Part shown: positions 6,912-28,567 of the stretch, in pieces | How positions within the stretch are numbered: the stretch's first letter is position 1 | Layout of the letters: each line of letters opens with the position of its first letter | NCBI GenBank assembly: GCA_034434535.1 | Contig: DAOTZC010000012.1 | Span: 510,128 to 574,127, forward strand | DNA from: Anaerolineales bacterium | GTDB taxonomy: Bacteria > Chloroflexota > Anaerolineae > Anaerolineales > Villigracilaceae | Direction of reading: 5' to 3' | Length of the DNA stretch: 64,000 nt | Made by a program: the position numbers and the translations under genes | Notes under the pieces: model-generated | Seen by the model: only the letters and a program-made list of their open reading frames with translations | The model's database searches: none | Told to the model about the DNA's origin: nothing

Positions 6912-6915
6912 CCTC

Positions 6916-9784: not shown

Positions 9785-9831
9785 ATTTTCATAATTTGGA
9801 TAAAAATAAAGAAATTTGGGGCTTTTAAGTC

Positions 9832-9859
9832 TTGCCATGACCAAAAAATCGGCTATAAT
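9832..9859 (+). promoter_or_regulatory. sigma70-like promoter for the synthase-type EPS operon
   Basis: TTGCCA (9832-9837), a 16-nt spacer, then perfect TATAAT (9854-9859), in an A/T-rich 218-bp intergenic region. Confidence 0.45.
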
Positions 9860-10002
9860 CTTTATTCCAGTGAGCTTTCAAATTTGATAGGTGGTTTGAT
9901 GATGCGTTCGTGAATGTTGATATGGGGGTGTTGGGGAGCAAAACGGATGATGAATGTTTTCTCCTCGTGATGGATAAACGTCAAAGGGAAAAGAGAGAGG
10001 CT

Positions 10003-11163
10003 ATGGAATTTAACCTGTTTCTACGCACGTTGCAGCGCGGATGGTGGATAATTGTCTTGTCAATTTTTATCGCAACCAACGTCTCGCTGGCAATTTCATA
10101 CATAACGCCGCCTGTCTATCAAACGACTGCCCGTTATGTCGTTTCGCCCAACGCTGGTCTTTTTTCCAGCAGTTGGGAATTGCTATCCAGCCTGGATACG
10201 CTAGACCGGCGCTCGATTGTGAACACTTATCGGGAGATGATTGCAAGTCCATCGGTTTATGAGCGGTCTCCAGAAATTCAGAAAATCAAACAGCAATCTT
10301 TAGATGATTTTGAAGTTTCTGTAGCAGTCATCCCCGATACCAATATCTTGCGGCTGACTGTAGAAGGCCCTGACCCTCGAAGGATTGTGGTGGTGGCCCA
10401 TGCTATCAGCACCGAAGTGCTGAGTTACATGAACGAGTTGAACCCAATTTATAACCTGAGCGTTCTCGAGGAACCCCAGTTACCCACTGCCCCTATTCGC
10501 CCCCAACCTCTTGAAAATGCTCTTTTGGCATCCCTGTTTGGAGGCATGGTGGGGCTGGTGCTGGCTTTTTCGCGCGAACAACTGCAAAATACGCTCGACA
10601 AATTGCGCGAACGCTCGATTATCGACCCGGTTTCATCCGCATATACTCGCGCTTATTTTGAGCGACGACTGCTTGAGGAAACTACCCAACATCCGGATGG
10701 CAATTTTGTGATGGGAATTATCAATCTGCGTGGTCTTGAGCAGGTCATGAACGTATTGCCCGAGCCGATTTTCAACCGCGTCCTTGGAACGGTTTCCAAA
10801 AAACTTAAGAATGAACTGCGCGGGCGGGATATTGTCGGACGCTGGAGCGACACGCAACTTGCAGTTATCCTTCCAGGAACGCCAGAATCAGCCGTAGAGC
10901 CGGCTTTTCGGCGCATTCAGGTCTATCTTTCCGAAGCCGTTCCGGTTGATAATGCCGGGGATATGGCTTTTAATCCCGACCCGTGTATTGGCGTTATTAT
11001 GCACAAACAGTTTGAGACGGTTGAGAGCATCATTGAGCGCGCGCAAATGGCTGTTGAAAAAGCCTCTGCTTTGTCTGAAGCGACCGTTGTATTTCTGAAA
11101 AATTCCTATTTTTCTGAAGAACGCATAGGCAGCACGATTGAGAAAAACGGAACCAGTGACTGA
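10003..11163 (+). CDS. polysaccharide co-polymerase (Wzz/PCP) fused to a degenerate GGDEF domain with intact RxxD I-site
   Basis: ATG 10003 is preferred over GTG 9910 because RBS GAGAGAGG lies 2 nt upstream. PCP features: TM1 WWIIVLSIFIATNVSLAI, P-rich LPTAPIRPQP, TM2 LLASLFGGMVGLVLAF. The C-terminal domain (about 10624-11073) aligns by eye to GGDEF: DPVSSAYTRAYF, RGRD (10819-10830), and SDTQL (10846-10860) in place of GG(D/E)EF, followed by AVILPGT. Confidence 0.75.
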   Translation: MEFNLFLRTLQRGWWIIVLSIFIATNVSLAISYITPPVYQTTARYVVSPNAGLFSSSWELLSSLDTLDRRSIVNTYREMIASPSVYERSPEIQKIKQQSLDDFEVSVAVIPDTNILRLTVEGPDPRRIVVVAHAISTEVLSYMNELNPIYNLSVLEEPQLPTAPIRPQPLENALLASLFGGMVGLVLAFSREQLQNTLDKLRERSIIDPVSSAYTRAYFERRLLEETTQHPDGNFVMGIINLRGLEQVMNVLPEPIFNRVLGTVSKKLKNELRGRDIVGRWSDTQLAVILPGTPESAVEPAFRRIQVYLSEAVPVDNAGDMAFNPDPCIGVIMHKQFETVESIIERAQMAVEKASALSEATVVFLKNSYFSEERIGSTIEKNGTSD

Positions 11164-11193
11164 TATCCTGCCAGGTTTTTGAGAGGACTGAAC

Positions 11194-13485: not shown

Positions 13486-13496
13486 GATAAGATGTC

Positions 13497-14672
13497 ATGG
13501 CTGTTCTGTTCTGGCTGGCTGTTTCGTTCGTAATATATACTTACCTGGGATATCCGCTACTGGTCTTCTTACTTTCCCGGTTAAGGCCAGCTCGTTTCCC
13601 AAAGACAAGTGAGTTACCGGTTGTGACCTTGTTGATTGCGGCTTACAACGAAGAGAAAGTTATCGCCCAAAAATTGGATAATTCATTAACGCTCGATTAC
13701 CCGCGCGAAAAACTCCAAATCATCGTTGCGGCGGATGGGTCTTCTGACAAAACTCCAGAAATCGTGCGGCAATTTGAGCCACAGGGTGTTGTGTTAAGTT
13801 ACATTCCTGAGCGAAACGGGAAAATGGCGGCCATTACCCGTGCAATGTCGCTGGCGTGCGGAGAAATCGTCATTTTTTCAGATGCCAACAACATGTATGA
13901 CCGACAGGCTATTCAGTGGCTGGTTGCGCCTTATGCCGATGGAAAAGTCGGCGCAACCACTGGCGCCAAGTTGATTATCGAAGATGGGCGTCCGTTGAGC
14001 TCGTCCGAAGGCTTTTACTGGAAATACGAATCTTGGATTAAAGAGAGCGAAACCCGTCTCAGTACCTGTACATCTGCGGTGGGGGAGATGCTGTCTATTC
14101 GTAAAGAATTGTTCGTCGCCCCAGAGCGCAGCATTGTGAACGATGACCGCTATATGGTCTTTGACCTGATTCGGCGCGGCTACCGCGTTTACTATACTCC
14201 TCGGGCGCGTTCCTACGAAACTGTTTCTAAATCTGCTGGCGACGAAATTGTGCGCCGCACGCGCATTACCGCTGGCGCATACCAGACAATGGCTATGGCA
14301 GCCAAACTGTTGCCGTTCGACCGTCCACTGGTTTTGTGGCAAATGGTTTCGCACAAGTTTTTCAGGGCTTTTGTGCCGTTTGTGATGCTGCTTGCTCTGC
14401 TTTCTAATTTTGCGTTGTTTTTTTGGCCCGCTCCGTCCAGTCTAAATGCTTTCTGGGCGGTTGCGCCCCCGTTCAACCAAATTTTTTTGGCTTTGCAGGG
14501 CTTATTTTATGGGTTAGCAGTGCTTGGCAATCTCTTTCCTGCGCGTGGCAAATTAGGGAAACTCCTGTATATTCCGACCTTCCTGGTCAATTCCAATTTG
14601 GCGGCCTTGTTAGGGTTGTATAGTTTTCTGACGAATAAAAACCCCCATCTTTGGAAGCGCGTCAATCGTTGA
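13497..14672 (+). CDS. membrane-embedded processive-type family 2 glycosyltransferase (PgaC/IcaA/YdaM-like synthase), no PilZ domain
   Basis: N-terminal TM; VVTLLIAAYNEEKVIAQKLDNSLTLDYP, AADGSSDKT, FSDANN (DxD-like), GEMLSIRKELF, VRRTRITAG at the Q/RxxRW position. About 4 C-terminal TMs. Confidence 0.8.
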   Translation: MAVLFWLAVSFVIYTYLGYPLLVFLLSRLRPARFPKTSELPVVTLLIAAYNEEKVIAQKLDNSLTLDYPREKLQIIVAADGSSDKTPEIVRQFEPQGVVLSYIPERNGKMAAITRAMSLACGEIVIFSDANNMYDRQAIQWLVAPYADGKVGATTGAKLIIEDGRPLSSSEGFYWKYESWIKESETRLSTCTSAVGEMLSIRKELFVAPERSIVNDDRYMVFDLIRRGYRVYYTPRARSYETVSKSAGDEIVRRTRITAGAYQTMAMAAKLLPFDRPLVLWQMVSHKFFRAFVPFVMLLALLSNFALFFWPAPSSLNAFWAVAPPFNQIFLALQGLFYGLAVLGNLFPARGKLGKLLYIPTFLVNSNLAALLGLYSFLTNKNPHLWKRVNR

Positions 14673-14691
14673 ACAGTCGTCCTTAGAGAGT

Positions 14692-15732
14692 TTGCGCATG
14701 GCATCCTGGCGAAAAAAAGTTCTCGACACTGGATTGAACCTGGCTATTCGGGCTGGGGTTTTTAACTTTTCGCGTTTTCTTGCACCTGAAACACTTACTG
14801 TTCTGAATTATCACCGGATTGACAATGCGGATTCCCCTGATTTCGACCTGTTCAAACCCAACGTCAGCGCCACCCCAGAAGAATTCGCCCGGCAGATGGA
14901 TTATCTTCAGGCACACTATAATGTCATCTCATGTGAACAACTGGACCACTGGCTTCAGGGCAAAGCGACTTTGCCTTCGCGCCCTGCCATTATCACGTTT
15001 GATGATGGGTATTCTGACAACCTTTTGAACGCTTTCCCCGTTTTGCAAGCCCGTAATTTGAGCGCCATTATTTTCCTGACCACCGGTTTTATTGGAACCA
15101 GACAGCCTTTTTATTGGGATAGCGTGGCTTATTGTTTTCATCATACTCGCCGTGACCATGCCGATTTACCTCTTTTAGGTGAGCGTCACTGGGCGGATGC
15201 TGCCTCTCGTGACAAGGTTATGCTCGCCTGGGTAGAAGCTCTAAAAAAAGTCCCCGAAACGCAAAAGCGCGTCCTGATTGAAAGGATTGGGGATTTTCTG
15301 GATGTGCCTATTCCAGAAGAAAGGTTTTCTAACCTGTACCTGACCTGGACCCAGGTGCGAGAGATGAGCCAGAAAGGGATGGAGTTTGGCTCTCATACCG
15401 TCAACCATCCCATTCTGACGCGCGTCTCGCCGGAAGAGGCGCGTTGCGAACTGATTGAATCGAAACGCCGCCTGGAGGAAGAAATTCAAAAGCCAGTCAC
15501 GAGCCTGGCGTATCCAAATGGGCAAGGGGCGGATTTTTCAAGGGCTGTCATGCGCATTGTGGCCGAAACCGGTTTCCGGTTGGCGTTCAGTCTGTTGCCA
15601 GGGCCAACGCGCTTGAGCACGGTCAAAAACAAACCATTGGACATTCGCCGGGTCTATATTGGGCGAAACCATTCTTTCCCCCGGTTTGTGGCTGCGCTGG
15701 CCGGGCTTCCGCGCCTGCTTAAGTGGCTTTGA
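14692..15732 (+). CDS. polysaccharide deacetylase (CE4/NodB-type)
   Basis: NodB motif 1 ITFDDGYSDN. The later SHTVNHP is consistent with the His-containing motifs. Sits downstream of the GT2 synthase, as in PNAG-type loci. Confidence 0.8.
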   Translation: MRMASWRKKVLDTGLNLAIRAGVFNFSRFLAPETLTVLNYHRIDNADSPDFDLFKPNVSATPEEFARQMDYLQAHYNVISCEQLDHWLQGKATLPSRPAIITFDDGYSDNLLNAFPVLQARNLSAIIFLTTGFIGTRQPFYWDSVAYCFHHTRRDHADLPLLGERHWADAASRDKVMLAWVEALKKVPETQKRVLIERIGDFLDVPIPEERFSNLYLTWTQVREMSQKGMEFGSHTVNHPILTRVSPEEARCELIESKRRLEEEIQKPVTSLAYPNGQGADFSRAVMRIVAETGFRLAFSLLPGPTRLSTVKNKPLDIRRVYIGRNHSFPRFVAALAGLPRLLKWL

Positions 15733-16957
15733 GCTGGTGGGCGTAAACATCTAATATGTTGCGGGCTATGGGGGGCCAGGCAAACCTGGTTTCTGATAAG
15801 TTTTTAGCGTAATGTCCCATTTCGGTGGCCCGGGCTTTGTCATTGATGATGGTTGTAATTGCCTTGCACAATTCTTTCGGGGAACCGGGGGTTACAAGAA
15901 AGCCACTTAACCCTTCATCCACCACGTCGGGGAAGGCGCCCACGTTGGTTGCCACCACTGGTTTGCCAAACGAGTAAGCCACTTGAACTGCGCCGCTTTG
16001 AGAGCTGTTCAGATAGGGTAAAACCACAACATCTGACCGGTGCATCAGTGGCGCTACTTCTTCCATCGCCAGGTAACGGCTGTCGAAGAGGATTGCATCT
16101 CGAAGCCTCAATTCTTCCACCTGTCTGAAAAGCGCATTCATATCCATGTACTTGGTAGGCATGCCAGCAATCAACAGGCGTGCCAGTGGATTTTGCGCAT
16201 GTACTCCCTCGAATGCCTTAATCAAATCGGGCAGGCCTTTGCTGGGCGTGAGCGTGCCAAAAAACAGAACCAATCGGTGTTCGTCGGTGAGCCCATATTT
16301 TGTTTGCATAGCGGCGAGCCGCGCTTCCATATCTGGCGGCTGGGGGAAGATTTGCTCGTTGCCGTGTACAATTTCGCGCAGCCGCCCGCGCGGAATCATT
16401 GGATATAGCGCGTGAAATTTGTTCAGGTTACTTGCGCCGTGCAGGAAAATGATGTCGAAGGATTGGAAGACGATGACCTTCATTCGGTCTGCAAGGCGTG
16501 CCATTATTCCCTGCGTTTCACGCGACTCAAACTCGTGACAAATTTGAGCCAGTCTTAGCCCACGCCATTTCATGTATTGCAGGAAGAAACCCTCGAAAGG
16601 AAATTCCACTTCGCCAAACTGTACGATGTCAGGCTGGGAACGAACCAAATAACGGGTGAGCCGCATTAACTGATAGACTAGCCGGATTGCCCGAATGCCT
16701 CGCCGCGCCGTCCAGAACAATTTTCGCGCGATGCTTTCCAGTTTGTTATGGGGTGGCCTGGTCAGCCGGGGGTCGGAGAGTGGCCAGAGTTTCAGGAACT
16801 GGTTGACTGTGAAGTTATGCGGAAACTTTTGCAATTCATAGCCCTGGCTGGTAATCAGGGTGACATCGGCGCCCTGTTCCGCCATGGCCTGGCATAGTTG
16901 GTAGGCGTAGTGAATCATGCCGCCTGCGCTGCGGGGTTCGACAACGAAAATTTTCAT
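15719..16957 (-). CDS. GT4-family glycosyltransferase
   Basis: Start set at ATG 16957 (MKIFVVEP...), which overlaps the upstream stop as ATGA. The ORF-track extension to 17101 lies inside the upstream gene. GT-B C-terminal region YLNSSQSGAVQVAYSFGKPVVATNVGAFPDVV. Confidence 0.8.
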   Translation of the reverse strand: MKIFVVEPRSAGGMIHYAYQLCQAMAEQGADVTLITSQGYELQKFPHNFTVNQFLKLWPLSDPRLTRPPHNKLESIARKLFWTARRGIRAIRLVYQLMRLTRYLVRSQPDIVQFGEVEFPFEGFFLQYMKWRGLRLAQICHEFESRETQGIMARLADRMKVIVFQSFDIIFLHGASNLNKFHALYPMIPRGRLREIVHGNEQIFPQPPDMEARLAAMQTKYGLTDEHRLVLFFGTLTPSKGLPDLIKAFEGVHAQNPLARLLIAGMPTKYMDMNALFRQVEELRLRDAILFDSRYLAMEEVAPLMHRSDVVVLPYLNSSQSGAVQVAYSFGKPVVATNVGAFPDVVDEGLSGFLVTPGSPKELCKAITTIINDKARATEMGHYAKNLSETRFAWPPIARNILDVYAHQLKAT

Positions 16958-18105
16958 GATGAACGCTTTCCTATCAGGGAATGGTATAGTACTTCGAGCG
17001 CTGTGATTTGCGCCTGAATGTTGAACTTTTTCTGGCAAATGGCCTGTCCGGCGGTTCCCCAGGCCTTTCGCAGGGCTGAATTTTCGGCCAATTGGGCGCA
17101 AGCATGGGCCAGAGCCGATACGTCTCCGGGCGGGAGCAGCCGGCCATTGACACCGTCTTCAATCATCTCTGGCACGCCGCCTACGTTCGAGGCGATAACT
17201 GCCTTTTGGGCGGCCATTGCTTCCATCAGCACGGTTGGCAGGGCTTCTGTTAATGTGGGTAAGACGAAAAAGTCGCATGCTGGCAAAATTTCATGAATAT
17301 CTTTACGTTGTCCGGCAAAAATAACCTGCGTTGTCAACCCCAGGTTGCGCGCCATTTCTTTTAGGGTGGGGCCGTGTTCACCATCCCCCACAATTAAATA
17401 TTGCAGGTTGGGATGGGTGTCTCTCAATTGCGCCATTGCCTGTAGCATGAACTGGATGCCTTTGGGTTCGCGCAGTACGGCGACTGTTACGGCGACGATG
17501 GAATCAGGCGCCAGACCGAATTCTTTTCGTTTGGCAATGCGCTCTTCCGTCGAAGTATCTTTATAAATGGACAGGTCAATTCCGTTGTAAAGGGTGATAA
17601 TTTTTTCGTCTGGAATTTTTCCGTCCCGAAGATAGTGCAGGCGGGTAATTTTTGAGACGCCGATGGACCGGTTGCAAAGATGCTTAAGCGCAGCCAGCGT
17701 GATTTGGTATCGCCATCGAGCGCGCTGCTCTTGCGGGTTATCAAGGGTGTGCAGAGTGGCGACGCATGGAATTCCCATGAGCCGGGCTGCCAGACTGCCC
17801 AGAATGATTGAAAATTCAAGCTGCGTGTGAACCAGTTGTGGTTGGTGACGGCGCAGATAGGTGATGATTTTATACAAATTGGTCGGATGCCGCAGGGTGG
17901 GGATGCTCAACAAATCTACAGGAATGCCAGCATTTTGCAGGTCTTTTGCGACGGGGTTGCCGCCGCGCTCTTGCAGCGCGCAGACGCGCAGGTCGAATCG
18001 CTCTCGGTCGAAACGCTCCAAAATGGCTAGCGTCAATCGTTCTGCGCCGCCGTGTCCCAAACTGTCTATCATCCAGATGATTTTGGGTTTCACTGCGTTA
18101 TCCAT
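16954..18105 (-). CDS. GT4-family glycosyltransferase
   Basis: IWMIDSLGHGGAERL N-terminus and PTLTEALPTVLMEAMAAQKAVIASNVGGVPEMIEDG (EX7E region). Confidence 0.85.
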   Translation of the reverse strand: MDNAVKPKIIWMIDSLGHGGAERLTLAILERFDRERFDLRVCALQERGGNPVAKDLQNAGIPVDLLSIPTLRHPTNLYKIITYLRRHQPQLVHTQLEFSIILGSLAARLMGIPCVATLHTLDNPQEQRARWRYQITLAALKHLCNRSIGVSKITRLHYLRDGKIPDEKIITLYNGIDLSIYKDTSTEERIAKRKEFGLAPDSIVAVTVAVLREPKGIQFMLQAMAQLRDTHPNLQYLIVGDGEHGPTLKEMARNLGLTTQVIFAGQRKDIHEILPACDFFVLPTLTEALPTVLMEAMAAQKAVIASNVGGVPEMIEDGVNGRLLPPGDVSALAHACAQLAENSALRKAWGTAGQAICQKKFNIQAQITALEVLYHSLIGKRSS

Positions 18106-19675
18106 GATGATTGTGGTGATTTTTAAGAGGGCGGGGTTGCATTGCCCGGAGTAAATCTTTGTTGATGGCTAGCGCCGACAGGATGTATCCGATTAAGAGC
18201 CAGATATAGCGGAAGAGCAAGCCATGTAAAAACAGGCCACTTATCAGGAAGGTGATGAGCGCGAAGGTCAGGGCAGTCATCCAGGAAGCCCAATCGGAGT
18301 CGGTAACATGCGCCTCATACTTTTTTCGCGCATGTATCATGTAGGCAAAAAGGTAGTAGAAGAAGATGGAAAAAGTGATGAACCCTATTATCCCCGTCTC
18401 CGAGAGAATTTCTACATAGAGCGAGTGTGGATGTCGGGCGATTTGGCTGGATGCCCTCATGCCAACGTTTACTAATCCAAGTTGGTTGGCATAGTCCCAA
18501 TAATTTGCGGAAAAATTGCCAAAGCCAACGCCCAGGAGAGGGTTATTTTGGAACATGGCTAACCCGGCGCGTATCTGATTGCTGCGCCCAACGAGCGAGT
18601 CATCCTGTTGGATGGCATACTCATTTTGCGGAGCAAAGAATACATTCAGCGACATCAGCCGCTGTGAATAATTTTCTGGTAAGACCGCAAAGAGAGAGAC
18701 AAGCGCCAGGCCTGCCATCATGATGTACAGGGGCTTGACTTTCATTTGCAATAAAATTAGCGGGATGACAATGCCTAATGCTACAAAAGCGCCCCGGCTA
18801 TTTGTATAAATCACTGCCAACAAAATGAGGAGAGATGCAATTGCCATGAGAAATTTCCGGCTGTTTTTTTTCTCGTACTTGAGCCGGTAAACAGCGATGG
18901 GGAAGGTTGCTGCAAGAGCCTGGCCCCACATGTTTGATTCGCCGATTGGTCCACCGTATCTCAGCATGCCACTGTCGTCGACTTGCCCAAAATTGCTTAA
19001 TTGCGCTAACCCCAGGAAAGTTTGGTCGAGCCCTAGTGCCATTTTGAGTACGCCGAGGCCAGCAACTACGGTCATCACAGTCAGGAAGAGCCTAAGACAG
19101 GTTTCCCACTTTTCGCGGGTATTTAAGGTGATGAATAAGATAACCCCAATCAGGATGTCTTTTGTAACATCAATGATGATATCAAAGGCTTCTCCTTTGT
19201 CAGGCGCGACAAACGTGGAGAGCACGATTGCCAGATAGAAGCCGAGCAAGGACCATTCAACACGGGTCATTTCAGGGAGATTGGAGAATTTTCCGGTGCG
19301 CAAAAGATAATTTGCCAGAATGCTGACGAAAATTACGGCAACCAGTGGTTTATTGACTCCCGGCAGACCTTCATCTGTTAATAAATCTGACGCATTGGTA
19401 AACACCATGATGGTGAGCAAATAAGCACCAAGTTCTGGTTTTTGGTAAATGGCCATCACGACGATGATGCCGATGATGGCCGCAAAGGCAAAAACCTTGA
19501 CTTCCATTGAACCAAACGAGATTCCAATGCCTCCAATTACGGAGGCAAGCAAAGCGGTGAGAATAAAAGGCACCCAGGAAATTTTGCGCATGTAAACTTC
19601 TGGCAGGTAGCGGCTCAGGTCGCTTTTTTCTTGCGATTTTTGGGGGAGCAGGGATGTACTGGTTTGTTCGGTCAT
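18098..19675 (-). CDS. Wzy-type polymerase / O-antigen-ligase family membrane protein
   Basis: About 12 TMs. Wzy_C-like loop NSRGAFVALGI ... HPHSLYVEILSETGIIGF. Has an 8-bp overlap with the downstream GT4 start. Confidence 0.75.
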   Translation of the reverse strand: MTEQTSTSLLPQKSQEKSDLSRYLPEVYMRKISWVPFILTALLASVIGGIGISFGSMEVKVFAFAAIIGIIVVMAIYQKPELGAYLLTIMVFTNASDLLTDEGLPGVNKPLVAVIFVSILANYLLRTGKFSNLPEMTRVEWSLLGFYLAIVLSTFVAPDKGEAFDIIIDVTKDILIGVILFITLNTREKWETCLRLFLTVMTVVAGLGVLKMALGLDQTFLGLAQLSNFGQVDDSGMLRYGGPIGESNMWGQALAATFPIAVYRLKYEKKNSRKFLMAIASLLILLAVIYTNSRGAFVALGIVIPLILLQMKVKPLYIMMAGLALVSLFAVLPENYSQRLMSLNVFFAPQNEYAIQQDDSLVGRSNQIRAGLAMFQNNPLLGVGFGNFSANYWDYANQLGLVNVGMRASSQIARHPHSLYVEILSETGIIGFITFSIFFYYLFAYMIHARKKYEAHVTDSDWASWMTALTFALITFLISGLFLHGLLFRYIWLLIGYILSALAINKDLLRAMQPRPLKNHHNHHG

Positions 19676-19718
19676 AATGGTTCCTTACGCGTGGATGTGC
19701 TTTAAGTAATGTTGGTTT

Positions 19719-21188
19719 CTATTGTTTGGGAGAGATGATGACCTGTACTAATCGCAGCAGGCTTTTTCCTTCCTGCCACCATATTATGCTGAGATAAGTG
19801 ATTGCGCCAGAGATAACGACGAGTGTCAATTGCAAAAAGACGTTTATATCGCTGGTCAGGGTGAGTACTCCAAAGGCGACTGGCGTCATACAGAGCGCGC
19901 CCAATATGGCGGGCTTGAGTTCTTTCAAAATATCTAGAAAGGACACTTTCAGAAAACGGGTTGCAACGTAGATGGTTATCGTTTGGTCAAGCGCAATTGC
20001 AATCAGGTATCCCCAGGCAAATCCAATCAGGCCGAATTGCGAACCAATCATCAGCGCCGGCACCAACACCAGAATGCTCATGAGATTGAGTTTGAAGAGG
20101 ATATCGGGACGGCCAATGGCCTTATAAACATCTCCCGCATGGTAGCCAACCGAGTAAACCAGCGCATACAGAGACAGAAGCCGTAATAAGGGAATGGCCT
20201 CCAGCCATTGTTCGCCGAAGAAGACGCGTACAATTGGGTCAGCCGCCACAAATAGTCCCAGGCAGAGCGGCATGACAATCAGTTGTACCAGGCGGATAGA
20301 GACCAGGAAGCCGCGCCGCAGTTCTTCAGGTTGGTCCTGGATGGACGAGAAGGCCGGGAAGAGCACAGAAGCGATAAGCCACAGGTTGCCCACAATGAGC
20401 ATTTCGGGTAGACGGTAGGAGATGCTGAACACACCCAAAGCGGCCACTCCCAGCATTCTGCCGATGATGAGGTAACTCAGGTTATCCACAAAAACTGTTA
20501 GAATATCCACCCCTGTGACTGAAGCGCCGAATTGGACTAATTGCCGTGCAATCGCAAAATTGACCGTTATGCGCGGTCGCCAGGGCTTAACCGCCCATGC
20601 TGCAATGACAGAAGCCAATGCGCCTGTCAGTTGCCCAAAAACGAGCGCCCAAACTCCAAAACCTGCGAAAGCCATCCATAAAGAGATGATTCCTTTGACA
20701 ATGGTATTGCTGATATCTGGAATGAATTTACGGCGATAGTCCAGGTCGCGCATCAAGAGATTGATATGCGTTGCGCCCAGCGCATTGAGGGTAAACGAAA
20801 GTCCCAGCCAGCGTAAGACGGGCGTGACTTGTGGCTCTTGGAAGTAGGCGGCAAACAAGGGCGCAATTGGAAGTACCAGCAGGGAAAGCCCGATGCCGAG
20901 CAGGGTATTGATTGTAAAAACAGTGTTGGCAGCCTCTTCCACATCGTCCCGCCGTTGAATCAGCGCCAGTCCCAACCCCAGGTCTTTAATGACCGAGAGG
21001 TAGTTGATGGCAACAACGGCAATGGCTACCAGTCCAAAATCTTCTTTGGTCAGCAAGCGCGCCAGCAAGGAGGTTGTCAGAAGAAGAATTCCCTTGCTGA
21101 CCCCAAACGTCAGAAAATTCCATATGACGCCTCGCCCGGCTTTGCGGGTGATAGAAGTATGGTTGTCCGATTGAATATTTTGGGTCAC
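19719..21188 (-). CDS. Wzx-type flippase (MOP/polysaccharide biosynthesis protein family)
   Basis: 489 aa, about 14 TMs. N-terminal GRGVIWNFLTFGVSKGILLLTTSLLARLLTKEDFG is typical of PST-family flippases. Confidence 0.8.
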   Translation of the reverse strand: MTQNIQSDNHTSITRKAGRGVIWNFLTFGVSKGILLLTTSLLARLLTKEDFGLVAIAVVAINYLSVIKDLGLGLALIQRRDDVEEAANTVFTINTLLGIGLSLLVLPIAPLFAAYFQEPQVTPVLRWLGLSFTLNALGATHINLLMRDLDYRRKFIPDISNTIVKGIISLWMAFAGFGVWALVFGQLTGALASVIAAWAVKPWRPRITVNFAIARQLVQFGASVTGVDILTVFVDNLSYLIIGRMLGVAALGVFSISYRLPEMLIVGNLWLIASVLFPAFSSIQDQPEELRRGFLVSIRLVQLIVMPLCLGLFVAADPIVRVFFGEQWLEAIPLLRLLSLYALVYSVGYHAGDVYKAIGRPDILFKLNLMSILVLVPALMIGSQFGLIGFAWGYLIAIALDQTITIYVATRFLKVSFLDILKELKPAILGALCMTPVAFGVLTLTSDINVFLQLTLVVISGAITYLSIIWWQEGKSLLRLVQVIISPKQ

Positions 21189-21190
21189 GT

Positions 21191-22399
21191 TTAACTCGTC
21201 GTTTCAGAATGTTCTGAGGGTAGAGGCTGCCCATTTCCTTTGGCTATTTTGTATCTACGCCGGAATAGGGTGTTTTTCAGCTTTCGCGCAATTTCCACGC
21301 TGGCAAGTGCTGCGCGGCCTGCTGGGGTGAGACAGAACATCCCCTCGCAAAGTTCTCGTCTTCTGGGCCATAAGTCATTCATATACGAATCTGGCCCGGC
21401 TGAACTGTCCATATATTCCAGGTCGGAAATATATTTATAACCATCTTCCAGGGCTTTTATCTCATTGATGGTGCCGGGCCCATATTTCGCATACTCAATA
21501 TCCCAGCCCACCTTGAAACCAAAACCTACCTTGCCTGATATTAAATTTGATGTGGATGCGATATTTTTGCCGTTTAGTCTTAATTCAGTGAAAAAAGCCC
21601 GGCCTTTTTGATTGAACCCGGTCATCATTTCGATAAAAAAGCGTAAATGGTTGGCGTTAGAATACAGGGAGGTTCCTCCCTCGCCTTTCCAGCCCATATG
21701 CTCCAGGTGGACGAATTCTTCAATAGATTTTTGCAGCGATTGCGTACCGCGCTGGACAACCCATTCCAGTGTTCCCAACTCTTGCAGTTTGCGCTGGTTT
21801 CGATAGTGGTTTTTCTTTTGCCCCCTGGAAAGGTGCGCCAATGGGTCTTGTTCTAATTGCCCTGGCAAGAAAATTGCTCTCGACCATTGTTCAAAGAGTT
21901 TCCATTTCATCCCAAAGTCGGTGGCTATGGCTTGGGCTTCTTCTGTAAAGAGACCCTCAACAGAGATGTTATTTAAATACAAGCCATGCCATGCATGCCG
22001 TTTGTTGGTTAAGTATCCATAAATTTCCTTCAGCGCATGGTGCGCATCTTCCTGGTCTATGAGAAAATCAGACAGGTAAGAATGCATGGACGCAAAAGCC
22101 GCCAGGTGCTTGAGCGGGAATTTTCGGGTTGGTTTTCGCGCCTGAAATAGAGCAACTCCGGCTAACTCGGGCAACCCTCCTGATGACTTTTCGACAAACA
22201 ACCCAAAAGTATTGTCGGAAGATTCCAGGTACCGCAAGGCTGGCAAAACAAAATGGGGCGACAAAAAAGCATTTGGAACAATGGCGCGTGCTTCCAGTTC
22301 ATCCCATGCGTCGATTAATCTGGAATTGATTTCGGTTGGTTTGAGAACCCGGACGGTGTAAGAATGATTTTTCTTCAGGTGGCTGGTATTTTGTGACAT
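21191..22399 (-). CDS. CelD/BioF2-like (FemAB-fold, GNAT-related) acyltransferase
   Basis: Start set at ATG 22399 (MSQNTSH...) to avoid overlap with the upstream gene. WDELEARAIVPNAFLSPHFVLPAL N-terminus and HLEHMGWKGEGGTS are typical of the EPS-associated CelD-like family, as I recall it. Confidence 0.55.
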   Translation of the reverse strand: MSQNTSHLKKNHSYTVRVLKPTEINSRLIDAWDELEARAIVPNAFLSPHFVLPALRYLESSDNTFGLFVEKSSGGLPELAGVALFQARKPTRKFPLKHLAAFASMHSYLSDFLIDQEDAHHALKEIYGYLTNKRHAWHGLYLNNISVEGLFTEEAQAIATDFGMKWKLFEQWSRAIFLPGQLEQDPLAHLSRGQKKNHYRNQRKLQELGTLEWVVQRGTQSLQKSIEEFVHLEHMGWKGEGGTSLYSNANHLRFFIEMMTGFNQKGRAFFTELRLNGKNIASTSNLISGKVGFGFKVGWDIEYAKYGPGTINEIKALEDGYKYISDLEYMDSSAGPDSYMNDLWPRRRELCEGMFCLTPAGRAALASVEIARKLKNTLFRRRYKIAKGNGQPLPSEHSETTS

Positions 22400-22430
22400 T
22401 GAATCACCCGGTATATATTTTGGGTACTGG

Positions 22431-24149
22431 TTAATTTGCGGTATCCTGGCGAAGCGTTTTGATGTCAATCAATGCGGAATTTGTTCCTATTGCTTGAATG
22501 ATGTGAGGGTACATCAGGTACAAATCGCGCATGGTTCGTGCATACCCTGCCAGGATAACTGTGTCGTGGTCTGTAATCTGCATCAGATGGTCGGTCAAAA
22601 CATTGATTTCCACGCTTTCCATCTCAGCATACAGCATGGTGAGATTTTCTCCCTGCTCGTTGGTATATTGACGCTCAACGAAAAGGCCACTTTCATCGGT
22701 TTGCAAATAATTATCCGACGTGTGGAACCCCATATTGTACAGGTTGTTCAGGTAATAATCAGGAGACCAACTGGTAACAACGATTGGGAGATTGAGACGC
22801 AAGGCTGTGTCGATTAATTCCTGGCGTTCTTGCGCCAGATTTTCTGCGAAAGTTTTCCACCCGCCCAGCAAGATGTAAGCATGTCCGTAAAGAGGCCGTA
22901 CCCCTTCGGGAGTGGGAAATGCCATGCCGGGTCCCAGGGTGACTGCCATCGAGGATTCATCTGTTTCCGGATAGTCGAAACGTCGAATTTCAAAGCCAGG
23001 TCCCCATGATGTGTTTTCTCTTGCAACACGAAGTCCAGCCATCCAGGGAGTGAGCAACCCAACCAGAAGCAGCATATAAACCAAATTCTTTTTGGATGGG
23101 TTATTTTGGGCATATTCCATGATTGCCTTGAAGCCTATGGTAAACAACAAGATAAGTGCTGGAAGGGCAGTGATAATAAATTTGGGTACGCCTGACCGGA
23201 GCCAGAGCAGACCGCTTAAAACGCTTGCTAGAATGACTAGCCCTATTAGACTGCGTTTTTGGGTCAGTCTGACCATGCCAGTCAGAATGAGCAGCGAGGC
23301 AGCGGGGGTAAACAGGGGGGTTAGATTCAAACCAGCGCGCAAGATGATTTCAGAGAGTGAAGCCTGACTTCCAGCCGATAACACTCCTACCTGATTAACA
23401 ACGTGTAAGACTGTGCCAAACGCAGCAAGAAAATCGTCTGGCCCGTAGCCGCTCAACAGAATGGCTGCCAGAAGCGTGAACAAAGCAAAGCCAGCCCACA
23501 GAAGAGCAAATTTTGCCTGCTCGACTTTTGTTTTATGGGTGGGTTGAACGAAAATGTCGGCGATGATGACCAGTATGTAAGCAGCAACGTTCCATCGGAA
23601 AGCGCCGCCCAATCCAAATAATATTGCCGAAAAGCTGTTCAGCACAAATTGACGCCAGACGCTTAAGTCAGGTTGACGGCAGGCATATCGCAGAATTAAA
23701 TGCGAGGTCAGGATAAAACACATTGCGACCAGCGTTGGGGCGTACACAAGACCAAGATAAAAAAACTCTGGCATAGATAGCAACACGCCAGCAGGCAGTA
23801 CCAGAGAAAAACCGGGAGAAATCTCTTCCCTGGTGTAGTCTCGCAGCCAATCGAATATCAGCAACAGGATGAGAACAAACATCACAACATTTGCCCAGCG
23901 GGTGATGCTGAATGCGATTACCCGTACCAGGCTTTCTCGAGGCGGGAGAACACTCAATACAACGTCCATCATGCCATGATAGGGAGAATATGCAGGCTGC
24001 ATGGCGCGGTTTCTTCCCATGACATGATACGCAACCGATGTGGCATCATCCCCATCGATGTACACATTTGTTCCGCTTAGTGTGTAAACAAGCCCAAAGG
24101 CAAGGGCTGGAAACAATATCCAAAGATACCTGGTGAGCGCGTTTTTCAT
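22431..24149 (-). CDS. large polytopic membrane protein, GT-C-like (polyprenyl-phosphate-sugar dependent glycosyltransferase candidate)
   Basis: Start set at ATG 24149 (MKNALTRYLW...). About 11 TMs, acidic first loop YIDGDDATS (a DxD-like feature of GT-C enzymes), and a C-terminal soluble domain of about 190 aa. Confidence 0.4.
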   Translation of the reverse strand: MKNALTRYLWILFPALAFGLVYTLSGTNVYIDGDDATSVAYHVMGRNRAMQPAYSPYHGMMDVVLSVLPPRESLVRVIAFSITRWANVVMFVLILLLIFDWLRDYTREEISPGFSLVLPAGVLLSMPEFFYLGLVYAPTLVAMCFILTSHLILRYACRQPDLSVWRQFVLNSFSAILFGLGGAFRWNVAAYILVIIADIFVQPTHKTKVEQAKFALLWAGFALFTLLAAILLSGYGPDDFLAAFGTVLHVVNQVGVLSAGSQASLSEIILRAGLNLTPLFTPAASLLILTGMVRLTQKRSLIGLVILASVLSGLLWLRSGVPKFIITALPALILLFTIGFKAIMEYAQNNPSKKNLVYMLLLVGLLTPWMAGLRVARENTSWGPGFEIRRFDYPETDESSMAVTLGPGMAFPTPEGVRPLYGHAYILLGGWKTFAENLAQERQELIDTALRLNLPIVVTSWSPDYYLNNLYNMGFHTSDNYLQTDESGLFVERQYTNEQGENLTMLYAEMESVEINVLTDHLMQITDHDTVILAGYARTMRDLYLMYPHIIQAIGTNSALIDIKTLRQDTAN

Positions 24150-24180
24150 GGTGCTCTCTCGCATGTTTTGCTGCATTGGT

Positions 24181-25362
24181 CTAACTGTTGCTAAAAACCG
24201 CAACCTTTTTGAGTTTTTTAAGCAGGCTGGAAAGCATTGGCACAGATTTTGCCCTGGTTTTTATCCAGTTTAGCCATTTCCACGTCATAAAAATTGCTCG
24301 ATTGCGAAACACTCTTACCCAGTACATTTCTTCTGCCGCGGTCGCCATGCTGGTTTTGTAATCTGCCTCGCCAGCCATGAAGTCATAGGCCAATTTTCCT
24401 GCGCGCGCGTTATACAAAATCGCATAGTAATGAGAAACCAGTCCAGGCCGGTACACGTTGCCTGGCAGGTAATTGAAGCCGCTCTGGTAAAAGTACACGC
24501 GGTTTTGGTCCATGAAGTTGTATAAGTAGCCAATTTCGGCGGTGGGCGTTGCAATCTGCAAGAGCTGTATCTCCCCGCTCGAAAATCGAGCGGTAATTAA
24601 ATCTTTATGAAATCGGTAAAAGTATTCATTCGAGAACGCACCCTCTATACCGCGCTGTCCCCATTCCCTTTCGTGGAAGGCTGCCAGGTTATCCAAAAAC
24701 TGGAGGGCTTCCTCAACGGTTTGCGCTGCTTGAAGGGTAATTTGACCGTGTTTTTCGTATTCTTTGATTGACCTTCGGATTTGACTGCGCTTGTTTGCGC
24801 TAATCAAATGCAGATAATCCATTCCCGCTTCACGCACCTGGCGCAGGTCCACATAGGGGGCGGCGGATTTTTGTTCGATGACGACAGGAAGTTTTTTCTC
24901 ATCGATAAATTCGCTGAACTGTTTGATGAATTGTGCCGAAAGACCGGGAAGATAAAATTCATTCCAGTCCAATCCATGCAGCGCGTGAAGCAGTCCTTTG
25001 GCGTCAATTTTTATGTTCGGTCGAATCAGTATGGTGTTATATTCTATGTAAATTTTATCGAAATATGGAATTCCAGTAGTGTTGAGCGAAACGACTTTAG
25101 TGCGAAGCAGTTTTATCCATTTCTTGCTTGAAAGGCCTGCAAAAAATGCCAGGACAGGCTCGTTCTTGTCCTCTTGAAATCCCACGACGAGCCGGACGCC
25201 GTGTTCGGCAGGCAGGCTGTTCAGCCATGTGGACATCCAGCCCCACGAGAGAAAATAATGATGTGGGCATTCTTTGAGCAGCCCCCGCCAGTATTGTTCT
25301 ATCAGGGCAATGTCTGTCTTGGGATGATATTCGGCAAATTTCAGTCGGTTCACCTGACCCAT
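24181..25362 (-). CDS. second CelD/BioF2-like (FemAB-fold) acyltransferase
   Basis: Start set at ATG 25362 (MGQVNRLKF...). Same family features as 21191-22399: WRGLLKECPHHYFLSWGW, FHEREWGQRGIEGAF. Confidence 0.55.
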   Translation of the reverse strand: MGQVNRLKFAEYHPKTDIALIEQYWRGLLKECPHHYFLSWGWMSTWLNSLPAEHGVRLVVGFQEDKNEPVLAFFAGLSSKKWIKLLRTKVVSLNTTGIPYFDKIYIEYNTILIRPNIKIDAKGLLHALHGLDWNEFYLPGLSAQFIKQFSEFIDEKKLPVVIEQKSAAPYVDLRQVREAGMDYLHLISANKRSQIRRSIKEYEKHGQITLQAAQTVEEALQFLDNLAAFHEREWGQRGIEGAFSNEYFYRFHKDLITARFSSGEIQLLQIATPTAEIGYLYNFMDQNRVYFYQSGFNYLPGNVYRPGLVSHYYAILYNARAGKLAYDFMAGEADYKTSMATAAEEMYWVRVFRNRAIFMTWKWLNWIKTRAKSVPMLSSLLKKLKKVAVFSNS

Positions 25363-25381
25363 GCTTTCTTTGGACGATATC

Positions 25382-26554
25382 CTACGGCCTGGTAATCTCT
25401 CCCAGAATGAGCGGGTTGTTTCCAATCATTGCTCGAAACAAAGCCAGAAGTTGTGGATTGTCTTGCACCCGCATCGTCGTGTTGTGGTTTGGGTTTTCGT
25501 CATTTTGCCAGGCCTCGTTCCACCAGGTAAACCCAATCAGATTTTCATACCGCATAGACAGGATGGTTTCCAATGCCTCGCGCGTCCATTCCACCTGGTC
25601 AACATAAGGATTGTCTTTTGCGCTTCCCATTTCTGCGACAATGATAGGTTTCTCTGGCGCCATTTTTATCATGCGCGGGTAGGTGTTTTCGATTTCGCTG
25701 CGAAACGAACCGTAATACATGCTGAAGGGCGTATGCGTCCCATACGCGCTAAAGCCTAGCCAATCAATCCATTCATCACCCGGATAATAGTTTTCAAACG
25801 CATTCCATTCCTGGTTTGGATAACTCTTGCCGCCTGCATGAAAGACCCAGGTGATATTGTCTGCTCCACTCTCGCGGCACAGCCGGATAATGTGACGGTA
25901 CGCATCGCGAAAGCGCTCTGGGCCATCGGGCAGATTGATGTTGCCATATCCGTCTGTTTGTCCGCCGCCGTTATAAACACCGGACCAGGGAAATGAATCA
26001 GAATTAACTTCTGTGCCGTATTCCGCAATCAGCGGCGTGCCAAAGTCACGGGCGGTCTGGCACCAGGCGCGCAGGTCCTTGTCAAATTCACCGGCCAGAA
26101 TATTTTGGAGGGTGTAGAGCGGCTCGTTGCGATGCGATTTGAAGTAGGATTGCATCATCAAACGCAAATATGGCACGCTTCCGGTCTGCCGAATCCAGCG
26201 CGCTGTTTCCAGTGGAAAGGCTTTGTCATCGAACCAGAAATGCGAAAAATACACCCAGGCAGCCTGCTTTCCTGCGGCGGATTCGTATTCCTGCAATGCT
26301 TCGGGGCTGACAACGACGTTCTCTCCCCCGCTCGGAAATACGCCGTGATACAGGTGCTTCTCTGGCGGGAGCGGGATGTCCTTCCCTGTTAGCCATGTCG
26401 CAGAGCCTGGCGTGGCTGTTAAGAGCATCTGAACCGGGGTGGGCGCATACGTTACAGGGGAATCGGCAGGTGGCGCCGGGTTGGGGCCTTGTTCGCGGCA
26501 GGAAGCCAACAAAAACAACCCGAAAAAGGCAAGAATCCGTAAGACGAAATTCAA
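25382..26554 (-). CDS. secreted clan GH-A glycoside hydrolase lipoprotein (GH26-like)
   Basis: Lipobox LFLLAS-C. AEYGTEVNSDSFPWSG resembles the GH26 acid/base segment HEMNGxWFWW. IIVAEMGSA is a plausible nucleophile segment. Confidence 0.5.
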   Translation of the reverse strand: MNFVLRILAFFGLFLLASCREQGPNPAPPADSPVTYAPTPVQMLLTATPGSATWLTGKDIPLPPEKHLYHGVFPSGGENVVVSPEALQEYESAAGKQAAWVYFSHFWFDDKAFPLETARWIRQTGSVPYLRLMMQSYFKSHRNEPLYTLQNILAGEFDKDLRAWCQTARDFGTPLIAEYGTEVNSDSFPWSGVYNGGGQTDGYGNINLPDGPERFRDAYRHIIRLCRESGADNITWVFHAGGKSYPNQEWNAFENYYPGDEWIDWLGFSAYGTHTPFSMYYGSFRSEIENTYPRMIKMAPEKPIIVAEMGSAKDNPYVDQVEWTREALETILSMRYENLIGFTWWNEAWQNDENPNHNTTMRVQDNPQLLALFRAMIGNNPLILGEITRP

Positions 26555-26632: not shown

Positions 26633-27301
26633 TTATTTTGCGCCACGTTGCTTGAACACCGCAATGACTGTCAGAAAGAGCAAACAAATATCCAGCCACA
26701 GGCTTCTTCTTTCAATATAAGCAATATCCAGCCGCAGACGGTCATCAAATTCCAAAGATGCTCGTCCGTAAACCTGCCATAATCCGGTAATGCCGGGCAG
26801 CACATCCAGCCGGGATGTGTGCCAGAGCTTATAAGTATCTGCGCCAAAAGAAGTCGGACGTGGGCCAACCAGGCTCATGTCGCCTTTTAGGACATTTAGC
26901 AGTTGAGGCAATTCATCCAAACTGGTTTTTCGCAGGATTTTACCAATCGGGGTGATGCGTGGGTCATTGGTAATTTTAAAATCAGGCCACTGTAATTCGT
27001 TCAAGTGGGCGTATTTCACTTTTAGTTCTTCTGCATTCGGCACCATCGAACGAAATTTATACATGCGAAAGCGTCGTCCGCCCCGACCAGTGCGCCATTG
27101 CGTAAAGATGGCTGGCGCGCCCGGCGAGGTAATTTTTATGACAAGCATAATCAAAAGAAAGATGGGGAGCCAAAACGGCATGGCCAGGATAACGATGGAC
27201 AAATCCATGACGCGTTTCATAAAATGATACGATTTACCCACGAAGATTCGTTTGTGGGGGCTGAATTTAGAAAGCCATGAGTATTCTGCGTAGTGATACA
27301 T
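26633..27301 (-). CDS. undecaprenyl-phosphate sugar-1-phosphate transferase (bacterial sugar transferase, WbaP/EpsL-type)
   Basis: Start set at ATG 27301 (RBS GGAGAA 6 nt upstream). RRFRMYKFRSM, DELPQLLNVLKGDMSLVGPRP and LPGITGLWQV are hallmark motifs. Confidence 0.85.
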   Translation of the reverse strand: MYHYAEYSWLSKFSPHKRIFVGKSYHFMKRVMDLSIVILAMPFWLPIFLLIMLVIKITSPGAPAIFTQWRTGRGGRRFRMYKFRSMVPNAEELKVKYAHLNELQWPDFKITNDPRITPIGKILRKTSLDELPQLLNVLKGDMSLVGPRPTSFGADTYKLWHTSRLDVLPGITGLWQVYGRASLEFDDRLRLDIAYIERRSLWLDICLLFLTVIAVFKQRGAK

Positions 27302-27385
27302 GATAGATTCTCCTTCTGTCACCCTTGATTTTGGAGTTCGAACAGTCACTTGAGCAAAAATCGAAACGCAATTTGCATGTTTTTA

Positions 27386-28261
27386 TCAGAGTTTTTCTGC
27401 ATCCTGCAAATGAGGTACATTCGATTTTTCAAATGGATGACCTTTGACGGACGATAGCTTGGTCTTTGCTGTATTGAGCAGCTCGTCAAAAGTCAAGGCT
27501 TCGTCAGGAAACGATGCTACGCTCCACTCCATAGAGGCCCCCATGATTTTTGTAAGAGCCTCGTTGATGCGTTCCGCCAGAAGCTTTGAATTTTCCCTGG
27601 TCGTTTCCGCGCATAAAATGACAAAATGTCCTTCAGGCGCGCGGAGTATCAAGTCTGTTTGGCGCAACTCATTGGTCATAATTTGCCCGATGCGCGCTGC
27701 CATAAAGTGGCGTAACAAATCTTGTTGCATCAGTTGGTAGGCTTGCTGATTTTCTTGCAAAGATGACTCTTCAGGTTTGAAAACTAGAACAGATAATGGG
27801 CGATGATGGCGGCGGCTGCGAGTCATCTCAATCTCAATCCGTTCGGTGGCTTGTCGCAGGTCAATCATGCGGTTGGTATAGGTTGAGGAAGCCAGGCTGT
27901 CCATGAGCGATTGCGCCAATCGAAGCTGAACGTTCAACTGATACGAAATCCAGACGGCAACCTCGACCAGAATAAATTCCACTCCCAGGATTTGAATATA
28001 AGCTAACCCATTGACCCTCACATAAAAGTAAGCCACCACAAGAAAGGTAACTGCCCAAAAACCCAGCAAAGCGTTTACCGACATCCAGCTCAGGCGCGGC
28101 ACGAACAGGTTGGTAAAAACAACCAGCACAATCAAAAAATAAAAATGGGATGGAAATTGAAAAATTGCTCCATAGTCGCTAAATACTTCACCTAAAGAGA
28201 ATACCAGTAACAGGTATGAAACCAATAATACAAAATTCTTTTTCAGCTCATCCATCTTCAT
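27386..28261 (-). CDS. membrane protein (about 5 TM) with degenerate GGDEF domain retaining RxxD I-site (YdaK/PelD-like c-di-GMP receptor candidate)
   Basis: N-terminal TMs. C-terminal domain: RRHHRPLSVLVFKPEES (in place of the DxDxFK strand), RQTD (27653-27664), then 5 residues, then PEGHF (27623-27637) in place of GG(D/E)EF, followed by VILCAETT. First gene of the Wzx/Wzy operon. Confidence 0.65.
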   Translation of the reverse strand: MKMDELKKNFVLLVSYLLLVFSLGEVFSDYGAIFQFPSHFYFLIVLVVFTNLFVPRLSWMSVNALLGFWAVTFLVVAYFYVRVNGLAYIQILGVEFILVEVAVWISYQLNVQLRLAQSLMDSLASSTYTNRMIDLRQATERIEIEMTRSRRHHRPLSVLVFKPEESSLQENQQAYQLMQQDLLRHFMAARIGQIMTNELRQTDLILRAPEGHFVILCAETTRENSKLLAERINEALTKIMGASMEWSVASFPDEALTFDELLNTAKTKLSSVKGHPFEKSNVPHLQDAEKL

Positions 28262-28373: not shown

Positions 28374-28567
28374 GCCCTTGTTTCAAAATCTAACTTTTAT
28401 TTCAAAATTACTGCTGCTACTTTGGTGGTTGCGTTCCCCATTTGTAACAAGCTATGCCACCCTGCTTATTGATATGTGCAATAAGCTACCATGATTTTTG
28501 AGATTATACACAAGGTTATTGGAAAATTCAAGTCAAATTTTCTGAATTGTCCAGGCATCTGATGCAA

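Follow-up and report, generated by a model that had tools for sequence, protein, structure and literature searches.

We analysed a stretch of 64,000 nucleotides from an Anaerolineales bacterium (contig DAOTZC010000012.1, positions 510,128 to 574,127; hereafter the window), which carries an exopolysaccharide (EPS) locus. The gene under study, at 27386-28261 on the minus strand, encodes a membrane protein with four transmembrane (TM) helices and a degenerate GGDEF domain, and is followed by the gene of a small phosphoglycosyl transferase (PGT). The protein is considered here as a candidate receptor of cyclic di-GMP (c-di-GMP), which would bind its ligand at the inhibitory site (I-site) of a GGDEF domain whose active site (A-site) has been lost. 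The features of this gene pair are listed below, with the evidence for each in brackets.

27386-28261, minus strand: four-TM (4TM) degenerate-GGDEF protein (open reading frame, ORF, of 291 aa)
27932-28261, minus strand: N-terminal membrane module with four TM helices, approximately residues 3-110 (AlphaFold2 model and hydropathy)
27446-27889, minus strand: cytoplasmic GGDEF-fold domain, catalytically degenerate, residues ~125-272 (Foldseek, PDB profile search, Pfam)
27809-27820, minus strand: RSRR (R148-R151) in the first domain helix, candidate secondary I-site arginines (aligned with RxxR of cyclases)
27653-27664, minus strand: RQTD, the RxxD motif of the primary I-site (R200, D203), residues 200-203 (aligned to RxxD of 3IGN, 5EUH, 5LLW and 6ZXM)
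27623-27637, minus strand: PEGHF in place of GG(D/E)EF, residues 209-213, dead A-site (aligned to GGEEF)
27569-27571, minus strand: R231, 31 residues after R200 (aligned to the Arg of 'ceRi'/'geRv' in 3IGN and 5LLW)
27488-27517, minus strand: ASFPDEALTF, family signature, residues 249-258, candidate partner surface (conservation in the family)
26633-27349, minus strand: small monotopic PGT of the Bac_transf family (Pfam PF02397, 4.4e-64)

The ORF exists as predicted and encodes 291 aa. Its true start is probably M3 at 28255, which would give a protein of 289 aa; this is the start used in public gene calls, and M3 is conserved at 95%. An AlphaFold2 (AF2) model of the 291-aa protein was built from a 44-member family alignment (mean predicted local distance difference test, pLDDT, 74.8). 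In this model helices span residues 3-22, 38-53, 62-84 and 86-127, the last of which is TM4 continuing as a stalk. The hydropathy profile of the same protein agrees with four TM helices, in place of the five or so that had been proposed. W69 is conserved in the membrane module of the 4TM family. No Pfam sensor domain was found for this module, and at E<=10 only GGDEF and GGDEF_2 were listed.

The original prediction had staked itself beforehand on a GGDEF fold, and the modelled domain does match one. The best PDB match in Foldseek was 4URG (E 7e-9, TM-score 0.72), followed by c-di-GMP-bound GcbC (5EUH), 3IGN, PleD, WspR and DgcR. There were 82 PDB matches at E<=1e-3, and the 50 listed were all GGDEF proteins. 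A profile of the family searched against PDB sequences returned GGDEF domains exclusively (4.6e-9). The Pfam GGDEF model (PF00990) scored 22.2 bits against a gathering cut-off of 23.8 (E 1.3e-4), just under threshold; a precomputed PF00990 match is present on some homologues, and NCBIfam gave weak partial matches to several diguanylate cyclase models.

HMMER alignments of the protein to 3IGN and 5EUH, and of the family profile to 5LLW, 3IGN, 6ZXM (DgcR) and 5EUH, gave the same equivalences. The coordinates originally predicted for RQTD (27653-27664) and PEGHF (27623-27637) proved exact, and the placing of VLVFKPEES on the DxDxFK strand was confirmed by the HMMER alignment. VLVFKPEES aligns with the 'vmFDiDhFK' strand, where K162 and E164 occupy both metal-binding Asp positions. 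GG[DE]EF was present in 0 of 85 species-level and 0 of 141 representative sequences of the 4TM family, and the position of the motif is variable. The equivalents of the catalytic and GTP-contact residues (K162, E164, S167, N171, D181, residues 209-213 and K266) rank 30 to 135 of 147 in conservation. Judged from these sequences, the catalytic site is dead, the metal-binding Asp, GG(D/E)EF and GTP-contact residues being replaced and variable across the family. The automatic labels 'GGDEF domain-containing protein' or 'diguanylate cyclase' on some relatives would agree with a cyclase that is active despite its unusual motif and serves as a local source of c-di-GMP. However, both metal-binding Asp, the GG(D/E)EF hairpin and the GTP-contact positions are replaced and unconserved in the family, which makes such an activity exceedingly improbable. 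The identity as an active cyclase was rejected on the loss of the motif and of the metal site.

A likeness to Pseudomonas aeruginosa PelD had also been proposed. Pfam at E<=10 gave no PelD-specific or GAF model, PelD was found neither in the PDB profile search nor in the Foldseek top 50, and no pel genes were found in the locus. Membership in the PelD family was rejected, given that Pfam listed GGDEF models only and that the PDB profile search and the 50 Foldseek matches listed consisted of canonical cyclases. By sequence and by modelled fold, the nearest relatives are canonical diguanylate cyclases rather than PelD. Because no search gave a specific match to PelD, the comparison with it is an analogy only.

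The RxxD motif is located exactly five residues upstream of the degenerate PEGHF motif. Many GGDEF domains carry an RxxD, and on its own the motif proves little; selection across the family was therefore examined instead, in three sequence sets. The first comprised 57 homologue clusters found by word search, 44 of which were aligned, and in these R200, D203, E145, R148, S149 and R150 are invariant. The second comprised 80 loci from GTDB species representatives, found via the pattern ASFPxEA[LV][TS]F. Among its 39 sequences with less than 70% identity, R200 and D203 are invariant and R231 is Arg in 35. The conservation of ASFPDEALTF in these loci (L010-L089 in our numbering of related loci) is biased, because the pattern served as the search query. 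For the third set, 1.84 billion representatives were scanned with HMMER without filtering; here the 4TM family amounted to 394 proteins, representatives at 50% identity, at E<=1e-30. Of the 394, 150 were listed (~160-320 aa); the 140 with at least 255 aa, together with the window protein, gave an alignment of 141 sequences.

In this third set D203 (140/141) and R200 (139/141) rank first and second among the 147 domain positions. R150 is kept in 138 of the 141 sequences, E145 in 130 and R148 in 125. R231, which also aligns with an Arg of 6ZXM, is Arg in 122 sequences, His in 10 and Lys in 3. Going by sequence offsets, we take R200 and D203 to be equivalent to R359 and D362 of PleD, R231 to R390, and R148 to R313 of the secondary I-site, a mapping with which the 3IGN, 5LLW and 6ZXM alignments agree. 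Such a conservation pattern would be expected for a domain without catalysis that is kept for ligand binding at the I-site. Of the dead GGDEF domain with an intact I-site that had been proposed, the catalytic loss and the near-invariance of RxxD are both borne out in the 141 representatives; binding of c-di-GMP is what we infer from them.

On the other hand, the family signature is conserved to a similar degree as RxxD, with F251 in 138, P252 in 139 and T257 in 128 of the 141 sequences. It lies on the surface and has no known role in nucleotide binding. Together with the lack of a cyclase gene near any locus, this would suit a membrane scaffold or adaptor that acts independently of nucleotides, with the GGDEF fold as a protein-interaction module only. 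Where cyclase structures have been solved, RxxD binds ligand at the surface and is not an element of the core. A scaffold without ligand would leave unexplained the top conservation of R200 and D203 plus that of R231 and R148/R150, and an unrelated second degenerate GGDEF domain in the locus, described below, retains the same residues. We therefore regard a pure scaffold as improbable.

The relationship between the receptor gene and the PGT gene was compared across relatives. Seventy-nine loci had at least 700 nt of DNA downstream of the receptor gene, and in 77 of them a PGT gene follows directly on the same strand, with identity of the receptor down to 25%. The two genes overlap by 4 nt in ~17 loci. 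In the window, the probable start of the PGT is 27301 (222 aa), and the gap after the receptor gene is ~36-84 nt. The family likewise lies within an EPS locus in 77 of the 79 loci. It is nearly confined to Chloroflexota (Anaerolineae, Chloroflexaceae, Caldilineaceae and Thermomicrobiaceae), with one match in a metagenome-assembled genome (MAG) of Methylococcales. In this last member (L089, 9563-11155) the PGT adjoins as well; it may reflect lateral transfer or a binning error. The exceptions to the adjacency are L074 and L084. In L074, an Anaerolineaceae member (9731-13268), a BcsB-like gene follows where the PGT is expected, and in L084, a member from the cyanobacterium Scytonema (9734-13687), a radical-SAM gene and a glycosyltransferase family 2 (GT2) gene are nearby. 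In two further loci (L025, 10001-10561; L052, 9992-10528) the family ORF ends at ~180 aa, before RxxD, which we attribute to a frameshift or pseudogene or to an assembly error.

The other genes of the EPS locus in the window are as follows.

28503-28531, minus strand: promoter-like site TTGAAT-17-TATAAT upstream of the receptor gene (consensus scan, 10/12 matches, weak evidence)
15719-26554, minus strand: remainder of the co-directional operon (Pfam)
24181-25425 and 21191-22468, minus strand: two Acetyltransf_6 genes (Pfam)
19719-21188, minus strand: Wzx (Pfam)
18098-19675, minus strand: Wzy (Pfam)
11179-15732, plus strand: BcsB-like protein, synthase-like GT2 and polysaccharide deacetylase, a Pss/Yda-like set (Pfam)
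9910-11163, plus strand: Wzz (polysaccharide co-polymerase, PCP) fused to a degenerate GGDEF domain (Pfam Wzz 41.9 bits, GGDEF 45.7 bits)

The predicted place of the receptor gene as the first of the operon holds: no gene precedes it on its strand, and upstream of it come the promoter-like site and then an amidohydrolase gene in divergent orientation. After the PGT the operon continues with genes for a GH26-like lipoprotein (glycoside hydrolase family 26), the two Acetyltransf_6 proteins, a 590-aa membrane protein, Wzx, Wzy and two family 4 glycosyltransferases (GT4). Counted from 28261 down to 15719, there are 10 co-directional genes and not the 11 given originally. Four ORFs of the EPS locus that are large or conserved (1152, 293, 185 and 590 aa) had no significant Pfam match; these lie in the regions 1101-4559 (plus strand), 6030-7473 (plus strand) and 22431-24203 (minus strand), and the 590-aa protein is conserved among close relatives. 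A histidine kinase gene recurs a few kb from the locus, at 4669-6015 (plus strand) in the window, 372-1601 in L009, 9046-9768 in L015 and 3102-4904 in L092. The sensors of these kinases differ, with a cyclic-nucleotide-binding domain in L009 and a GAF domain in L092, and no response regulator was seen. The recurrent histidine kinase may provide a further regulatory input.

The wider gene content was counted in the 51 loci whose DNA extends 9 kb or more downstream. Wzy and Wzx were each found in 47, the Wzz fusion in 41, and BcsB or GT2 in at least 24; the last count is a lower bound because many matches sit at the edge of a locus. In L092 and L093 the order is degenerate-GGDEF protein, PGT, (GT4), Wzz fusion, BcsB, GT2 and deacetylase, with GT4, GT4, Wzy and Wzx convergent. 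This order indicates that the pair of degenerate-GGDEF protein and PGT is the invariant unit, and that its partners on the strand are variable. The conserved partner is thus the adjacent PGT, not the Wzx/Wzy operon as such. The proposal that the receptor heads a Wzx/Wzy operon is correct for the window, but it does not describe the conserved partner, which is the PGT (77 of 79 loci); it is the BcsB/GT2 strand that the pair heads in L092 and L093.

The GT2 of the window carries hydrophobic segments at the N- and C-terminus, and the set at 11179-15732 matches in gene content the synthase-dependent operons pss of Listeria and yda of Bacillus, here embedded beside PGT, Wzx and Wzy. An I-site c-di-GMP receptor could act on the GT2 and BcsB-like pair, as YdaK and PssE do, with the adjacency to the PGT reflecting co-expression only. 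Orthologues of the BcsB-like protein, GT2 and deacetylase belong to the conserved gene set and are co-directional with the receptor-PGT pair in L092, L093 and L052. Moreover, in L074 the family member is directly followed by the BcsB-like gene, and PssE is near-identical in size and in motif position (208 versus 209 here). However, BcsB or GT2 is detectable in just 24 of 51 loci, as a lower bound, against 77 of 79 for the PGT, and the BcsB and GT2 genes of the window lie on the opposite strand, 13 kb off. There they stand directly after the Wzz fusion, which makes the Wzz fusion the more natural YdaK-like partner for them. We hold the synthase-like pair to be a plausible but, on the whole, unlikely target of the 4TM receptor.

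The Wzz fusion itself was analysed in the same way. Its Wzz score of 41.9 bits compares with a cut-off of 25.5, and its probable start is 10003, giving 386 aa. RGRD (10819-10830) stands five residues before SDTQL, which takes the place of GGDEF, and GIINLRG is found where the DxDxFK strand is expected. The AF2 model (pLDDT 79.5) consists of a helix at residues 2-34 (TM1), an outer domain of ~135 aa, a helix at 169-206 (TM2 plus stalk) and a GGDEF fold; two TM helices around an extracytoplasmic domain fit the architecture of a PCP. The GGDEF fold matched 3IGN in Foldseek with a TM-score of 0.86 and a root-mean-square deviation of 2.1 A. Orthologues with 34-59% identity occur within the same operons of distant relatives, usually between PGT or GT4 and Wzy-Wzx. 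All 45 sequences of the fusion that were compared have the Asp of RxxD and a degenerate A-site; 38 of them have its Arg, and the Arg 31 residues downstream is present in 98%. The family comprises at least 269 clusters at 90% identity, which annotation pipelines label 'diguanylate cyclase-like' or 'capsular polysaccharide biosynthesis protein'.

The 4TM family and the GGDEF domain of the Wzz fusion were compared by hhalign. The probability was 46% (E 2e-4, 15% identity), with RxxD and the downstream Arg aligned; on these values the two degenerate GGDEF families were rejected as recent paralogues. A seven-member subclade of the fusion (L061, L064, L069, L073, L075, L077 and L082) has ELPGRD, in which the Arg of RxxD is lost, and the 4TM protein of this subclade carries the variants LR(V/T)VD and SRHFHRALS. 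These variants look like clade-specific co-variation of both proteins. In monoderm Wzx/Wzy systems a tyrosine kinase stands at the co-polymerase position, with control of the CapA/CapB type. As to a tyrosine kinase here, no kinase-type Pfam family was found in the ORFs of the locus or of the related operons. A literature search on Wzz/PCP-GGDEF fusions, or on degenerate GGDEF domains in the Wzx/Wzy pathway, found no relevant paper.

The source of the presumed ligand was sought by regular expressions and by phmmer with the 3IGN and 5LLW domains in all ORFs of the window and of 89 related loci. The two degenerate families were the sole GGDEF-like ORFs recovered, and a local cyclase partner was rejected, since the searches returned just these two. 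Literature searches on c-di-GMP production in Anaerolineae were uninformative, and a search for a census gave nothing for Chloroflexi. If c-di-GMP is scarce or lacking in these organisms, the I-site pocket might bind another guanine nucleotide, such as (p)ppGpp, GTP or a different cyclic dinucleotide, and the absence of a canonical GGDEF gene from about 1.35 Mb of sampled neighbourhoods would agree with such a ligand. In line with this, the Foldseek listing includes PDB 9G85 and 9G86, in which PleD is present with c-di-GMP together with (p)ppGpp. On the other hand, the I-site degenerate GGDEF receptors PssE, YdaK and PelD all bind c-di-GMP via RxxD, and we hold a different nucleotide to be quite improbable.

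The reading that we favour, if by a narrow measure of confidence, is that the dead-GGDEF membrane protein is an I-site c-di-GMP receptor which gates the priming step via the adjacent PGT. Going by the conserved residues, c-di-GMP would be bound at the I-site, probably as an intercalated dimer as in PssE, by R200, D203 and R231, and through the dimer these residues could be linked to the R148/R150 helix in a second protomer. The long stalk helix that extends TM4 would relay the liganded state to a membrane partner. The leading candidate for this role is the small monotopic PGT encoded immediately downstream, which the receptor would contact so as to activate it or to relieve an inhibition. Gating of the PGT would affect the first committed step, the transfer of a sugar-1-phosphate to undecaprenyl phosphate. 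The Wzz fusion, at the tyrosine-kinase position of monoderm systems, could bring the same signal to bear on polymerisation or export. It is possible, and we offer it tentatively, that c-di-GMP gates the Wzx/Wzy-type pathway of Chloroflexota post-translationally, and does so at two points, via two unrelated degenerate-GGDEF I-site receptors. In such a model, which is speculative, one receptor would be paired with the PGT and the other fused to Wzz in replacement of the tyrosine-kinase module, giving a second-messenger version of the PCP/BY-kinase (bacterial tyrosine kinase) logic.

Several observations weigh against gating of the PGT by c-di-GMP. The locus carries a GT2 and BcsB-like pair, the partner type of YdaK and PssE, and the two outliers without a transferase are found beside a BcsB-like gene (L074) and near a GT2 (L084). 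Adjacency of a gene to the transferase gene is not contact between the products. No diguanylate cyclase was found in the 64-kb window or in ~1.35 Mb around the 89 related loci, and no c-di-GMP riboswitch or other Rfam family reached the gathering score in the window, nor did a tRNA. The AF2 model of the receptor is only moderately confident at pLDDT 74.8, and the equivalences to R313 and R390 of PleD are tentative.

If true, the proposed control would explain how a second messenger gates the first step, which consumes undecaprenyl phosphate, and the polymerisation step. It would also give roles to two families labelled 'hypothetical', 'GGDEF domain-containing protein' or 'diguanylate cyclase'. 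The hosts are filamentous Anaerolineae from sludge, sediment and hot-spring communities, in which matrix production is important. Post-translational control by c-di-GMP is established for synthase-dependent EPS, namely cellulose, alginate, Pel, poly-N-acetylglucosamine (PNAG) and Pss/Yda. For the widespread Wzx/Wzy pathways, post-translational control was called 'incompletely understood' in a 2025 study (PMC12802240). The original remark that control of Wzx/Wzy by c-di-GMP receptors is less documented agrees with the papers that we found, which cover synthase-dependent systems (PMC12802240). The contrast it drew between synthase-dependent precedents and a Wzx/Wzy setting is too clean, given that the BcsB-like protein, the GT2, the deacetylase and the Wzz-GGDEF fusion are in the locus as well. 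PelD, PssE and YdaK are already known as EPS receptors that use the I-site of a degenerate GGDEF domain. New here, in that we found no paper on them, are the obligatory pairing with a PGT, the presence of Wzx and Wzy, the Wzz with a second such domain and the absence of a tyrosine kinase. The system probably represents a second-messenger switch for a pathway type without a known one.

The protein can be compared with known systems. In PelD, which serves the Pel synthase, a GAF domain precedes a GGDEF domain that has diverged strongly. The 4TM protein resembles it as a membrane-bound degenerate GGDEF protein with RxxD and differs in that there is no GAF domain. PelD is described as an inner-membrane protein that turns on its EPS machinery when c-di-GMP occupies the RxxD of its degenerate GGDEF domain (references cited in PMC12802240). 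With PleD, WspR, DgcR, GcbC and 3IGN the protein has in common RxxD, the downstream Arg and the RxxR helix; unlike in these, the catalytic half-site is destroyed, so that nucleotide could bind at the inhibitory site alone.

Regulators of the first enzyme in Wzx/Wzy pathways provide a second comparison. In Myxococcus, phosphorylated EpsW (EpsW~P) activates the priming transferase EpsZ by direct contact, and in Staphylococcus the small transferase CapM is a substrate of the CapB1 kinase (PMC12802240). The system proposed here would be alike in the post-translational control of the first enzyme of a Wzx/Wzy pathway by a regulator that the pathway encodes. The input there is phosphorylation, by a response regulator or a tyrosine kinase, and not a cyclic dinucleotide, and the proteins are unrelated in sequence. 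The holdfast pathway of Caulobacter is of the Wzx/Wzy type. Its HfsK, a FemX-like acyltransferase with two GNAT (GCN5-related N-acetyltransferase) domains, acts in the holdfast polysaccharide pathway and is itself a post-translational c-di-GMP effector (PMC5362036). Two Acetyltransf_6 genes are present in the operon of the window; in HfsK, however, the effector is the enzyme itself and not a degenerate-GGDEF receptor.

The closest analogues, compared by architecture and motif position alone, would be PssE of Listeria monocytogenes (Lmo0531) and YdaK of Bacillus subtilis. In PssE, RxxD stands five residues before 208-DKDDA, two c-di-GMP are bound per protein with a Kd of 0.79 uM, and the protein is essential for EPS (PMC4125290). 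YdaK operates like PssE, and in B. velezensis a ydaK deletion rescued defects in biofilm, colonisation and biocontrol (PMC9800504). In view of this rescue, the effect of the 4TM protein may be of either sign. Both analogues share with it a layout in which a single GGDEF domain comes after ~100 residues of N-terminal membrane region, RxxD five residues before the dead motif (at 208 in PssE and 209 here), and an EPS locus that also encodes a BcsB-like protein, a GT2 and either a deacetylase or a hydrolase. On the other hand, PssE and YdaK serve GT2/BcsB synthases without PGT, Wzx and Wzy, whereas the protein described here belongs to a family nearly confined to Chloroflexota and is tied to a PGT, in a locus with Wzx and Wzy.

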